Source: a virus
Virus genome (UHGV): UHGV-0135757
DNA length: 10,798 nt
Strand: one strand, 5' to 3'
Shown here: piece by piece, positions 4,535 through 10,798 of the stretch
Numbering within the stretch: position 1 is the first letter of the stretch
Layout of the letters: the number at the start of each line of letters is the position of its first letter
Position numbers and translations under genes: made by a program
The notes under the pieces: generated by a model
The model's input: only the letters and a program-made list of their open reading frames with translations
What the model was told of the DNA's origin: nothing
The model's database searches: none

Positions 4535-5189
4535 TATCGCGCCCTCAACAATGAGTTTTGTGATGCGGTGCCTGGTGCCTCCAGGTGACGTTAACCAGTT
4601 AACAATTAACGCCGGATACAGAGAATCCACCCATAACACTGTTTTTGGTTTTAACTGTTCCGCGTGCGCTTAGCCGCATTCACCGCATCACAAAATTCAC
4701 TTTAAAAAGGGCGGCAGAGCAGTCACGGAGTAAAACTGATACCGCCAAACGTCACCAGAAAATTGATAACAGAGGGCGTTGCAGCGGGGTTGTCACTTAA
4801 GCGTATGGTCAACCTGACAATCCGGTGTCCTCAACGGGGAAAGAGTAACCCCGCCATACTTACCGCCGCGCCATTTCGCGGATTACCACAACGCTGAGAG
4901 CACTTAGCCAGTTACGGCACCACACTTTGTCGCGGTTCCATAAATGCCCTCATCGTTGCACCCTGGTCTCTTCCCAGGCGTCAAACCGGATCGCCGCGCT
5001 GGTTAGGCGTCTTATCAGCATCATCATTGACTTGCACATTCCGGCTACCTGGTTTGTTTGCCCGAGCAAGGAGTGGATTGTCCCCTTTAACGTCCCCAGA
5101 CCGCTAACGACGCATGTGCCATACGCCGTGTTACAACCAAATTTTGTTAGTACCTTGTTTGTTGGTCTGGAAAGAAAGATAAAATGAAG

Positions 5190-5228
5190 TTGCGCATTAT
5201 GCAAGTGTTTTTATTGCGAGATATGCAA
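5190..5228. promoter_or_regulatory. OL-like operator pair: two 15-bp TTGC-N7-GCAA palindromes, presumably overlapping the leftward early promoter
   Basis: Seen directly: TTGCgcattatGCAA (5190-5204) and TTGCgagatatGCAA (5214-5228), centres 24 bp apart. The same TTGC-N7-GCAA pattern recurs between the repressor and cro-like genes (5997-6011). A CATAAT -10-like hexamer lies between them on the minus strand. Confidence 0.45.
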
Positions 5229-5240
5229 TTTGATGGGTAA

Positions 5241-5262
5241 TGAAAAGCCACCTTCGGGTGGC
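5241..5262 (-). terminator. Rho-independent terminator downstream of the repressor gene
   Basis: On the minus strand: GCCACC-CGAA-GGUGGC (6-bp GC-rich stem, 4-nt loop) followed by UUUUCAUUA, about 20 nt after the repressor stop. On the plus strand the hairpin is not followed by a U-tract, so it is unidirectional. Confidence 0.55.
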
Positions 5263-5283
5263 TAATTGATGAGGAAGTAAGGG

Positions 5284-5976
5284 TTAATTGTGTCGTTTAA
5301 GGGTTTGTGACTGGCTGATTAAGACCTTTCCAAAGACCATAAACCGGTGTTCATTTTCGCTGGTAATTCCCCATTCACGGTAAATCTGGTTATCAGAAAT
5401 CACCAGCAGTTTGTCAGGAATCATTTGAAGTCTTTTAACGTATATTTTGTCATCAAAACCAAAGACATATATACCATCACCATCAAACTGATTGATGCTG
5501 ACATCAACGAAGATGAGATCTCCTGGCTCAATGGTTGGACACATACTGTCCCCACGAACGTTGATAACTTTAATGTGATTGGCTGGTCGTCCGCCAAACA
5601 TCGATACAGCATTATCAGTTCTGTATTCAATGGCATGAATCACATCAATGACATCACCGCCCTGGATAAGGCCATTTCCCGCACTGGCACTGACATCCAG
5701 CATTTCAATACGGAATACATCCTTCACCTGCGCAACATCCTCATTATTACTGTTTTTATATACAGTATTACTTTTGAGGGCAGAGGTAAAGAGATCAGCA
5801 ATATCAACACCTAAGCTCCTGGCAATATTACTCAGGGCTTGTTCAGTGAATTGTTTCTGCTTACCTGTTTCCAGGCGCGAGATATTCGCCGCATCCACTC
5901 CTATTGCTTCAGCGAGATCGGCGATTTTCATGTTCTTCGCCTGGCGAAGTTGTCTGACTCGGTTTCCTATGTTCAT
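5284..5976 (-). CDS. CI-type prophage repressor (N-terminal XRE-family HTH, C-terminal S24 LexA-like autopeptidase domain)
   Basis: 230-aa ORF. N-terminus MNIGNRVRQLRQAKNMKIADLAEAIGVDAANISRLETG is a classic HTH. C-terminus has the S24 serine motif VRGDSM and a downstream Lys (YVKRL), with an Ala-Gly pair in the linker (SASAGNG) as a possible RecA-stimulated cleavage site. Divergent from a Cro-like gene across an operator-rich intergenic region. Confidence 0.9.
   Translation of the reverse strand: MNIGNRVRQLRQAKNMKIADLAEAIGVDAANISRLETGKQKQFTEQALSNIARSLGVDIADLFTSALKSNTVYKNSNNEDVAQVKDVFRIEMLDVSASAGNGLIQGGDVIDVIHAIEYRTDNAVSMFGGRPANHIKVINVRGDSMCPTIEPGDLIFVDVSINQFDGDGIYVFGFDDKIYVKRLQMIPDKLLVISDNQIYREWGITSENEHRFMVFGKVLISQSQTLKRHN
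5748..5767. promoter_or_regulatory. Near-consensus LexA (SOS) box inside the repressor gene's linker-coding region
   Basis: Seen directly: TACTGTTTTTATATACAGTA matches the E. coli LexA-box consensus TACTGT(AT)4ACAGTA at 18 of 20 positions, with CTGT-N8-ACAG intact. It encodes residues NTVYKNS between the HTH and peptidase domains. Confidence 0.45.
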
Positions 5977-5996: not shown

Positions 5997-6066
5997 TTGC
6001 GCGTTAAGCAAATCAACTTGCGCAAAATATTTGCGTGAAATAATATGCTCATCACGCAATATGTGG
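5997..6066. promoter_or_regulatory. OR-like operator region with candidate rightward promoter (-35 TTGCGC 6018-6023, 17-bp spacer, -10 TAATAT 6041-6046)
   Basis: Seen directly: TTGC-N7-GCAA palindrome at 5997-6011, the self-complementary TTGCGCAA at 6018-6025, and further TTGCG/CGCAA half-sites to 6060. The promoter-like hexamers have correct spacing and lie about 28 nt upstream of the cro-like start. Strong GGAGG SD at 6066-6070. Confidence 0.5.
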
Positions 6067-8661: not shown

Positions 8662-9314
8662 TGAGTAATAAATATTGCCAGGCGCTGGTGGAACTGCGGA
8701 ACAAACCAGCCCATGAACTGAAGGAAGTGGGCGATCAGTGGCGCACGCCGGATAACATTTTCTGGGGAATTAACACCCTGTTTGGCCCGTTTGTTCTGGA
8801 TCTGTTCACTGACGGTGATAACGCCAAATGTGCCGCGTATTACACGGCGGAAGACAACGCGCTGGCGCATGACTGGTCAGAACGTCTTGCGGAGCTTAAA
8901 GGTGCTGCCTTTGGTAATCCCCCATACAGTCGCGCCAGTCAGCATGAGGGGCAATACATCACCGGCATGCGTTACATCATGAAACATGCCAGTGCCATGC
9001 GTGATAAAGGCGGGCGCTATGTTTTCCTGATCAAAGCTGCCACCAGCGAAGTGTGGTGGCCGGAAGATGCAGATCATATTGCTTTTATTCGCGGGCGTAT
9101 TGGTTTTGAACTGCCTGCCTGGTTTATCCCGAAAGATGAGAAGCAGGTGCCGACAGGCGCTTTCTTCGCTGGTGCTATTGCTGTTTTCGACAAGACCTGG
9201 AAGGGACCGGCAATCAGCTACATCGGGCGCGATGAACTTGAGGCATGTGGTGAGGCCTTTCTGGCGCAGGTTCGCCAGCAGGCGGAAAAACTGGTCAGGG
9301 AGATGGCGGCATGA
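8661..9314 (+). CDS. Phage Dam-type DNA N6-adenine methyltransferase (orphan, no partner endonuclease visible)
   Basis: ATG 8661 overlaps the upstream stop (TAATG). Catalytic motif FGNPPYS is present. Size (~217 aa) and location are typical of nin-region phage Dam-family methyltransferases. Confidence 0.8.
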   Translation: MSNKYCQALVELRNKPAHELKEVGDQWRTPDNIFWGINTLFGPFVLDLFTDGDNAKCAAYYTAEDNALAHDWSERLAELKGAAFGNPPYSRASQHEGQYITGMRYIMKHASAMRDKGGRYVFLIKAATSEVWWPEDADHIAFIRGRIGFELPAWFIPKDEKQVPTGAFFAGAIAVFDKTWKGPAISYIGRDELEACGEAFLAQVRQQAEKLVREMAA

Positions 9315-9637
9315 CGACGTTAACTCAATGCCAGCAGCAGGTGCTGGATATGCTGATTTCTTATCAGAAAGAACGTGGTTTCCCGCCAACCAATCAGGAG
9401 GTGGCAACCATGCTGGGATACCGTTCAGTGAATGCAGCGGTGGAGCATCTTCGCGCACTGGAGAAAAAAGGTGTCATCACGATAAAGCGTGGCGTGGCCC
9501 GGGGGATAACGCTTCATACCGCGGTGAAGGACGACGACAGCGAGGCGGTCGGGATTATCCGCTCACTGCTTGCCGGTGAGGAAAACGCCAGGCTGCGTGC
9601 AGCCCACTGGTTACATGAGAGGGGCCTGAAAGTATGA
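9311..9637 (+). CDS. LexA N-terminal DNA-binding-domain-like protein lacking the S24 autocleavage domain
   Basis: 108-aa ORF; ATG 9311 overlaps the Dam stop as ATGA. Residues 4-66 (LTQCQQQVLDMLISYQKERGFPPTNQEVATMLGYRSVNAAVEHLRALEKKGVITIKRGVARGITL) align colinearly with the E. coli LexA winged-HTH domain, including the recognition helix (SVNAAVEHLRAL vs SPNAAEEHLKAL). The ~40-aa C-terminal tail has no Ala-Gly site, Ser or Lys dyad. Confidence 0.8.
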   Translation: MTTLTQCQQQVLDMLISYQKERGFPPTNQEVATMLGYRSVNAAVEHLRALEKKGVITIKRGVARGITLHTAVKDDDSEAVGIIRSLLAGEENARLRAAHWLHERGLKV

Positions 9638-10074: not shown

Positions 10075-10128
10075 TACTGTATTTATGAACAGTGTATCCT
10101 TGATAACTATTAAAAATCGCAGTAAGTT
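10075..10128 (+). promoter_or_regulatory. LexA (SOS) box adjacent to a candidate promoter upstream of the antirepressor-like gene
   Basis: Seen directly: TACTGTATTTATGAACAGTG (10075-10094) has CTGT-N8-ACAG intact and matches the consensus at 16 of 20 positions. Candidate promoter hexamers TTGATA (10100-10105), 17-bp spacer, TAAGTT (10123-10128); alternative -35 TGAACA inside the box. Confidence 0.55.
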
Positions 10129-10191: not shown

Positions 10192-10798
10192 ATGAATCAG
10201 TTGCTTGTAATTGATGGCGTTTCTGTGCGCCAGTACTTCGAATCTAACTACTGTCTTAACGACCTTCAGAAAGCTGCTCTTCTTGCCGCTGGTGAGAATC
10301 GCTCCTCCCGTTCGCTGGAAGTTCACGAGTTTATGCGTCGTCCTGAAACGAAGGCTCTTGTGGAATTATTGGAAGAAGAAACTACGGGAGATTCCCGTAG
10401 TATTCCTGTCATCACCATTCAGGGGCGCAATGGTGGGACGTATGTCTGTAAAGAGCTGGTCTATGCATATGCAATGTGGATCAGCCCGGCATTCAGCTTA
10501 AAAGTGATACGTACTTTTGATGCGCTTCATAATTCATCACCAGAAGAAACCACATCCGACAAAATTAAATCCGGGGTCATTCTGCTTGAATCAGCAGCAA
10601 AGACTCTAAATCTGTCAAACTCCTCGAAACTTGGTGCATACCAGAAATTATCAAAGGTAGCTGGTCTTCCTGAACTTATGCCGATCTATGCCATTGATGC
10701 ACCTGCTGATGCGCCAGATGGTTCAAGCCGCCCTACGCTGTCGCTGAGTGCACTGCTGAAGCAGTATGGTATCCGCCTGACGGCTAATCAGGCATATC
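10192..10798 (+). CDS. KilA-N domain / antirepressor-like protein (Roi/Ant-like), 3'-truncated by the window end
   Basis: Open frame from ATG 10192 (GGAG 6 nt upstream) to the window end with no stop; absent from the ORF track for that reason. N-terminal region (IPVITIQGRNGGTYVCKELVYAYAMWISPAFSLKVIRTFDAL) has the KilA-N/Bro-N-type signature. It follows rusA, where lambdoid phages often carry roi/ant-type genes. Confidence 0.65.
   Translation, partial: MNQLLVIDGVSVRQYFESNYCLNDLQKAALLAAGENRSSRSLEVHEFMRRPETKALVELLEEETTGDSRSIPVITIQGRNGGTYVCKELVYAYAMWISPAFSLKVIRTFDALHNSSPEETTSDKIKSGVILLESAAKTLNLSNSSKLGAYQKLSKVAGLPELMPIYAIDAPADAPDGSSRPTLSLSALLKQYGIRLTANQAY

Follow-up and report, generated by a model that had tools for sequence, protein, structure and literature searches.

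We have identified a predicted operator for the SOS repressor LexA inside the coding sequence of a phage repressor gene. The site lies at positions 5748-5767 of a 10,798-nucleotide (nt) stretch of viral DNA (UHGV virus genome UHGV-0135757), hereafter the window, and it falls within the gene for a CI-type repressor that is encoded on the minus strand. The box is identical to validated operators and is under purifying selection at the level of DNA. It also shares a conserved promoter geometry with its homologs and is followed by a conserved Shine-Dalgarno (SD) motif and start codon. In the reading that we favor, with a probability of roughly 45%, the box would control a LexA-repressed internal promoter that yields, after SOS induction, a repressor without its DNA-binding domain, and a built-in antirepressor is the most likely role of this product.

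A LexA box in the repressor linker

An initial annotation, made from the letters of the window, had described a near-perfect LexA box in the linker of the repressor (NTVYKNS), and both parts of this description were borne out. The box encodes residues 70-77, which lie between the helix-turn-helix (HTH) domain and the Peptidase_S24 domain. On the plus strand it reads TACTGTTTTTATATACAGTA, with 2 mismatches to the 20-mer SOS consensus (18/20 positions), and on the minus strand, the coding strand of the repressor, it reads TACTGTATATAAAAACAGTA, which matches the listed operator of umuD and sbmC in every letter. The site also contains the 16-base-pair (bp) core CTGT-N8-ACAG of the 20-bp operator palindrome, whose consensus approximates TACTGTATATATATACAGTA. 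In 200 dinucleotide-preserving shuffles of the window, no match with three or fewer mismatches occurred. As the annotation had also proposed, the whole window was scored with a LexA position weight matrix, which was trained on 18 validated E. coli LexA operators whose own scores range from 13.6 to 28.0 bits. At 27.1 bits the box ranks with the strongest of these validated operators, and its counterparts in homologous genes scored 19-29 bits. The second-best site in the window (10075-10094) reached 20.7 bits, and all others 10.6 bits or less. We regard the site as confirmed in its identity as a predicted host LexA operator of top strength.

Conservation was examined in 204 unique nucleotide sequences of homologous repressor genes. 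They came from viral contigs, metagenomes and annotated phages, and from genomes sampled at one per species. In 201 of them, which include repressors with as little as 54% protein identity, a box scoring 19 bits or more occupied the same codon position (nt 210-229 of the gene, or 207-226 in the Proteus clade), and it was not degenerate in close homologs. The hosts of the box-bearing genes span more than a dozen enterobacterial genera and include Escherichia, Shigella, Salmonella, Citrobacter, Klebsiella, Kluyvera, Pseudescherichia, Trabulsiella, Buttiauxella, Pantoea, Mixta, Rosenbergiella, Serratia and Proteus. There are 39 variants of the box, in which variation is confined to the spacer and the outermost bases; the core is CTGT-N8-ACAG in 197 sequences and CTGT-N8-CCAG in 4. 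Only three homologs are box-less, namely two Dryocola genes and one Phaseolibacter gene (39% identity), and scans of viral contigs and metagenomes for further box-less relatives yielded box-bearing genes only. In one of the two Dryocola genes, nt 210-229 read CGCTGTGCAAAAGCACAGCG. Here CTGT-N8-ACAG is kept, the spacer is GC-rich, the score is 7.2 bits and the downstream SD motif and start are lost; the remnant looks like a box in decay. Separately, a 1.4-kb contig of an actinomycete assembly, labelled Actinomadura rugatobispora, carries this same enterobacterial repressor gene with an intact box and is most likely an assembly contamination.

Codon use within the box is nearly frozen. The box peptide, T-V-(Y/C/H/F)-x-x-S, occurs in 23 variants among the 201 box-bearing sequences. 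Its Thr codon is ACT in 200 of these (GCT, Ala, in the remaining one), its Ser codon is AGT in all 201 and never AGC or TCN, and its Val codon is GTA in 197. The residue after Val (Tyr, Cys, His or Phe) has a T-ending codon in 197/201, and the codon before the Thr has T as its third base in 193/201, across nine different amino acids. As a control in the same genes, every other invariant residue with four- to six-fold degeneracy uses 2-6 codons, and invariant two-fold residues each use both codons. A sliding profile of synonymous constraint across 28 cluster representatives has its gene-wide peak at codons 67-78, with an observed/expected ratio of 1.9-2.0, and the 5' end of the gene is lower at ~1.6. 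Because the ACT and AGT codons are fixed, the spacer residues vary and the constraint peaks here, selection targets the DNA and not the peptide, as the initial annotation had suspected. On these comparisons, we take purifying selection on the box DNA to be confirmed. The profile also has a secondary peak (1.4-1.5) at codons 44-52 (5821-5847, minus strand), in the HTH part of the gene and ~40-60 nt upstream of the predicted internal -35 element described below.

The same data bear on the reading that the box has no function as DNA and reflects a conserved peptide (T-V-Y-x-x-S), chance, or the fossil of a fusion between an HTH gene and a umuD-like gene. In its favor, Thr, Val and Ser are conserved at the protein level, and the nested open reading frame (ORF) is UmuD-like in architecture and is accompanied by the umuD operator and promoter layout. 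This reading is countered by the near-invariance of ACT and AGT while other conserved degenerate residues vary, by the third-base T that persists in front of the box regardless of the amino acid encoded, and by the highest synonymous constraint in the gene; a fossil would also have decayed at 54-70% protein identity. As far as ongoing selection goes, the codon data refute it. We judge it scarcely credible, the least probable of the readings weighed here. A fusion origin is possible but would not explain the maintenance of the box.

A further role listed by the initial annotation was that of a binding site for a LexA-like protein of the phage itself. This 108-amino-acid (aa) protein, encoded in the window at 9311-9637 (plus strand), consists of a LexA DNA-binding domain only (Pfam LexA_DNA_bind), with no peptidase domain. 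It shares 43% identity with residues 1-86 of E. coli LexA, keeps most of the recognition helix, and is a candidate ligand in place of host LexA. Its gene, however, is carried along with the Dam-RusA module, and protein searches found it in none of Salmonella phage ST64B, the Klebsiella phages and Flotzy; its absence from ST64B was confirmed by direct tblastn. Since these phages keep the box without the gene, the box is independent of the protein. The protein is not needed to account for the site, and its binding is largely refuted as the primary explanation and very improbable in that capacity. Where it is encoded, the protein could be an additional, uncleavable ligand of the box, and it could act as an uncleavable LexA mimic of lytic growth. 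The gene is linked to the Dam-RusA module in 61 phage records. It was also found in phages such as SfV, SfIV and cdtI, which are not among the matches to the immunity region.

The predicted internal promoter and start

The initial annotation had stated that no convincing -35 or -10 hexamers were present near the box. A pair does exist on the sense strand, namely TTTACC, 17 nt, TACTGT, in the layout of umuDC. It had been missed because it falls below a simple consensus scan; such a scan of the window returned nothing at the box. When the surroundings of the box in 23 homologs were scored on either strand with a weight matrix for sigma-70 promoters, a single fixed layout was recovered on the sense strand: TTTAC(C/A/T) or TTTATT, 17 nt, and TACTGT, the first of the two half-sites that make up the box. 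This layout is the best-scoring promoter in 17 of the 23 homologs and has a mean of 6.7 bits at that geometry. TTTACN is present in 156 of the 201 box-bearing sequences, and the constant 17-nt gap between the -35 element and the box is notable since the linker is otherwise variable. The predicted overlap of promoter and box has the geometry of the umuD promoter (TTGATC, 17 nt, TACTGT in K-12), with a -35 element that is confounded by coding, and sbmC also fits this layout. A published 47-bp synthetic promoter derived from umuDC (TTGACA, 17 nt, TACTGTATATAAAAACAGTA) is functional and tightly SOS-inducible, and therefore this layout can function.

An alternative raised by the initial annotation is that the box gates a promoter of the opposite direction, from which rightward transcription would yield an antisense RNA that covers the 5' third of cI and perhaps reaches cro. 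The palindrome supplies TACAGT as a -10 element on the plus strand, and TTATTA, 16 nt, TATTAC in the window mimics the layout of recA. OOP of phage lambda, a LexA-repressed antisense RNA, provides a precedent. Against this, no -35 or extended -10 element with a constant position was found on the antisense strand of the 23 homologs, where the best fixed geometry has a mean of 1.8 bits compared with 6.7 bits on the sense strand. The linker varies most in the region that would lie upstream of such a promoter, and no non-coding RNA is annotated within the cI gene of ST64B in the D23580 transcriptome tables. The proposal did not hold up across the homologs, and we consider it improbable. STnc1310 of ST64B was ruled out as a candidate transcript, as it lies ~330 nt downstream of cI and not inside it.

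LexA might also act on the repressor gene without any internal promoter, by hindering RNA polymerase that arrives from PRM, such that repressor synthesis would be held down in healthy cells and would rise on LexA cleavage. The box is of the highest-affinity operator class and lies ~285 nt downstream of the predicted PRM start (the -10 element ends at 6040). In gene-level RNA sequencing data for ST64B, cI messenger RNA (mRNA) is level or slightly up under the DNA-damaging shocks of peroxide and nitric oxide, with cro and the early-left genes up about ten-fold. These expression data fit a relieved roadblock; they are also compatible with an added internal transcript, for which they are weak and not diagnostic. 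A roadblock could sit anywhere in the gene and in either orientation, which leaves the position of the box at the domain boundary unexplained, along with its fixed 17-nt distance to TTTACN and the peak of SD motifs and starts downstream. In addition, more repressor during SOS would run counter to induction. We find a roadblock quite unlikely.

The peak in question was located by scanning for in-frame ATG, GTG or TTG codons with an SD core 5-10 nt upstream in 30 clusters of repressor genes (<90% protein identity). The combination peaks sharply at residue 87 (20 of the 30 clusters), with 3 more clusters at residues 84-86. There is a secondary peak at residue 95 (10 clusters), and no other position in the gene exceeds 2. 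At residue 87, GTG accounts for 18 of 24 Val codons (75%), compared with 20% gene-wide and no more than 50% at other conserved Val columns, and two Pantoea clusters have ATG there. In 86% of the cluster representatives, codon 87 is preceded at 5-10 nt by an SD-like motif (GGAG, GAGG or AAGG), compared with 5.9% for an average codon position, and this is the maximum for the gene. Its coding differs by clade (E-G, G-D, Q-E, K-E-K, R-K or Q-G-G), and an SD motif built from different amino-acid pairs points to selection on RNA. The conserved SD motif and start sit 30-50 nt downstream of the box, where the S24 domain begins, and the Ala-Gly cleavage site follows ~12 residues after the start. The three box-less genes also lack them.

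The initial annotation had mentioned a leftward, SOS-gated promoter for the peptidase domain among the possible roles of the box, and the comparative data favor both this direction and this product. Its proposed start, Met92 (5703-5701), was rejected; it lacks an SD motif, and relatives have ATA, GTA or TTG in its place. In the clades of the window and of ST64B, the candidate start is GTG84, with a ribosome-binding site that is, by its sequence, suboptimal and weaker than those of most other clades. An out-of-frame mini-ORF of 6 codons (5724-5744, minus strand; ATG AGG ATG TTG CGC AGG TGA) begins 11 nt past the box and ends in GTGA overlapping GTG84, and a clade-specific translational coupling is possible.

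A candidate antirepressor and its relation to known systems

The full-length repressor has an HTH domain (HTH_3/HTH_26) at residues 3-64 and a Peptidase_S24 domain at residues 104-218, the combination of CI/LexA-type S24 repressors. It carries the cleavage site VSASA-GNG (Ala99-Gly100) and the Ser/Lys dyad in the motifs GDSM (Ser144) and VKRL (Lys181), the latter of which aligns to the Lys156 motif of LexA. The predicted residues for self-cleavage are therefore retained by the full-length protein.

We propose the following sequence of events. In an undamaged lysogen, LexA occupancy of the box would hold the nested promoter closed. Upon DNA damage, activated RecA (RecA*) would lead to LexA self-cleavage, and the nested promoter, TTTACC (5790-5785), 17 nt, TACTGT (5767-5762), would fire. 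The short mRNA would begin inside the box and run in the same direction as cI, and the terminator at 5246-5263 would end both this and the full-length transcript. Translation from the SD motif and an in-frame GTG or ATG (GTG84 here, residue 87 in most relatives) would give a protein of ~145 aa, consisting of the S24 peptidase and dimerisation domain without the DNA-binding domain. This truncated product may form mixed dimers or oligomers with the intact repressor, or it may cleave the repressor in trans. Lower operator occupancy and reinforced RecA*-driven self-cleavage would then commit the prophage to induction. In its fullest and more tentative form, our proposal is that this large family of enterobacterial prophage repressor genes contains a complete umuD-style SOS unit with promoter, LexA operator, leader, ribosome-binding site and start codon, that the repressor's own peptidase domain would serve as antirepressor or trans-acting protease, and that induction would proceed through both RecA*-driven self-cleavage and LexA.

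Several points weigh against this model. Both hexamers are modest, with 4/6 and 3/6 matches to consensus, and the conservation of the -35 element is not independent evidence because the conserved Leu-Phe-Thr codons largely dictate it. The window's clade has GTA at codon 87, and its alternative, GTG84, has its SD motif at a long distance of 10-11 nt; in Klebsiella-type clades, a good SD motif with GTG occurs only at residue 95/96. The box-less controls are few, being 3 genes from two lineages. A strong operator within a transcribed region would partly block transcription from PRM, which complicates the logic of the switch. Finally, a free C-terminal fragment of lambda CI is known to bind RecA* and to delay SOS induction, and the product could thus be a brake.

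In that event the same LexA-gated promoter and C-terminal product would compete with the repressor (and with LexA) for RecA* and would buffer the prophage against brief or mild SOS. All of the sequence evidence for the promoter and internal start fits this equally. Published work on lambda CI shows that RecA* binding does not require the DNA-binding domain, and that the free C-terminal fragment inhibits cleavage of another CI fragment and causes a dose-dependent delay or block of SOS in cells. The lambda fragment was, however, engineered to be monomeric and catalytically dead, whereas a wild-type domain would be cleaved and would dimerise with intact repressor. Moreover, the known LexA-gated phage modules Tum, Ant and Gfo/Gfh promote induction. 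We consider a brake unlikely, and still the foremost of the alternatives to an antirepressor.

The closest parallel to the proposed antirepressor unit is umuDC of E. coli, together with sbmC. The 20-bp operator is identical, a predicted -35 element is followed by 17 nt and TACTGT as the predicted -10 element, and LexA would cover the -10 element and the start. As in umuDC, the downstream product would have an S24 fold without a DNA-binding domain and with a short N-terminal arm and cleavage site. Unlike in umuDC, the whole predicted unit, from promoter and operator through the leader to the start codon, is embedded in frame within a larger gene, and the product predicted from the sequence would be the C-terminal two-thirds of a phage repressor and not a polymerase subunit.

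LexA-controlled antirepressors are familiar from phages, including Tum of 186, GfoA/GfhA of Gifsy, and Ant of SPC32H and N15. They are encoded by separate genes, are unrelated to the repressor and usually serve repressors that are unable to self-cleave. The present unit resembles them in that host LexA, instead of or besides repressor self-cleavage, would tie induction to SOS. It differs from them in that the candidate antirepressor would be an isoform of the repressor, nested in frame, and in that the repressor keeps its Ala-Gly site and Ser/Lys residues. The nested product may thus work like these modules, but it is not a member of the group.

Tn5 offers a parallel of another kind, as its transposase has an N-terminally truncated inhibitor isoform, Inh, produced from an internal start. 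Both Inh and the product predicted here are shorter same-frame proteins that lack the DNA-binding N-terminus and keep the oligomerisation part, and mixed oligomers are proposed for both. Unlike Inh, the repressor isoform would receive its input from a strong LexA operator overlapping a predicted internal promoter, and its setting is a lysis-lysogeny switch. Free C-terminal fragments of lambda CI and LexA, including the mCI probe, are also comparable, in that a lone domain binds RecA* and can affect the cleavage of other molecules. McDonald et al. reportedly described intermolecular cleavage by LexA/UmuD-type enzymes in 1999. Those fragments are engineered or are products of cleavage, whereas the product predicted here would have a coding unit and a regulation of its own.

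Each ingredient is known already, be it LexA operators, antirepressors under LexA control or truncated isoforms with a dominant-negative effect. In the literature that could be searched, we found neither a repressor gene with a LexA site within it nor a truncated repressor made from an internal start, which is not proof of novelty. The new element would be a conserved, predicted LexA-gated unit that is nested in frame in the gene of a self-cleaving repressor.

The immunity region, its distribution and implications

The window represents the early region of a lambdoid prophage. Its genes encode an integrase, an exonuclease VIII-like protein, the small RNA DicF, the repressor, Cro, the CII-like ymfL product and replication proteins, followed by Dam, the LexA-like protein, RusA and a KilA-N protein. 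DicF (4709-4760, minus strand; Rfam RF00039, 76.7 bits compared with a gathering score of 48) lies between the repressor and exonuclease genes, in the early-left region. Positions of the features in and around the repressor gene are collected in Table 1. The palindromes of the TTGCG-N5-WGCAA type are presumably the repressor's own OL and OR operators, and the LexA box is unrelated to these operators because of their different type. If the left-hand palindromes are OL, PL would lie just left of the cI terminator.

Table 1. Observed and predicted features of the repressor gene and its flanks
Feature	Position	Strand	Remarks
OL operators, TTGCG-N5-WGCAA type (presumed)	5190-5204, 5214-5228		match the OR operators on the opposite flank of the gene
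Intrinsic terminator	5246-5263	-	directly after the repressor gene
Full-length CI-type repressor gene, 230 aa	5284-5976	-	HTH_XRE + Peptidase_S24; mEp460 / SfII / Stx2a_1447 / ST64B immunity type
Predicted nested ORF, 147 aa, (M)KDVFRIEMLDVSASAG...	5284-5727	-	whole S24 peptidase/dimerisation domain with Ala-Gly site, without HTH
In-frame GTG codon 84, candidate internal start	5725-5727	-	window's clade and ST64B clade
SD-like GAGGA	5738-5742	-	10 nt upstream of GTG84
LexA (SOS) operator, predicted	5748-5767	-	encodes (N)TVYKNS(N), residues 70-77; 27.1 bits; 201/204 homologs
Predicted transcription start, near 5755	5753-5757	-	inside the box, ~7 nt past the -10; placed from promoter geometry only
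Predicted -10, TACTGT	5762-5767	-	first half-site of the box; umuD-like layout
Predicted -35, TTTACC	5785-5790	-	codons Phe63-Thr64; 17-nt spacing fixed in all clades but Proteus
OR region with presumed repressor operators, TTGCG-N5-WGCAA type	5997-6059	.	palindromes 5997-6011 and 6045-6059
PRM-like promoter, TCCACA, 16 nt, TATTAT	6067-6040	-	predicted

The second LexA box of the window (10075-10094, TACTGTATTTATGAACAGTG, 20.7 bits) is intergenic, after rusA, and has the layout TTGGGT, 16 nt, TACTGT. Downstream of it, an ORF with a KilA-N domain (10192-10798) runs off the window; it probably encodes a conventional LexA-gated antirepressor. As the KilA-N gene is likely LexA-gated too, the prophage may have two LexA inputs. 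In ST64B (40 kb), the box in cI is the sole LexA site of at least 13 bits, so that it would act on its own there. ST64B has neither the LexA-like gene nor the boxed KilA-N gene and keeps the box, and a dependence of the box on either was rejected. In phage mEp460, two adjacent LexA boxes lie at the promoter of a dinI-like gene (23255-23302), and a further box (41021-41040, 23.1 bits) lies within a DNA methylase gene, 8 nt past its annotated start. On the predicted sites, these phages use LexA repeatedly.

The immunity region is 93-97% identical in DNA to those of phages mEp460, SfII and Stx2a_1447 and of several ECOR prophages. More distant relatives include Salmonella ST64B (~75% identity) and Klebsiella phages (~70%). 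The immunity type is present in Stx2a- and Stx2c-converting phages, the Shigella serotype-converting phage SfII, Salmonella ST64B and many Klebsiella prophages. Assignment to the e14 immunity type, which was prompted by the ymfL label, was rejected. The e14 repressor of K-12, YmfK/CohE, is an unrelated protein without the box, and the published LexA-dependent induction of e14 is not applicable here because it concerns this different repressor.

The stretch from cI through cro to ymfL is matched in 2569 of 5426 complete E. coli genomes, with at least 80% of it covered in 1040, and the immunity type is thus common. The hypothesis is directly testable and of high test value, since synonymous mutations can separate the DNA element from the repressor protein. 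If it is true, this would be a clear example of a seemingly unconstrained linker that hides both a regulatory unit and a second protein, and it would call for caution in annotation and in synonymous recoding. Induction of these prophages, including the release of Shiga toxin after SOS-inducing antibiotics, would then depend on host LexA beyond the textbook self-cleavage of the repressor.

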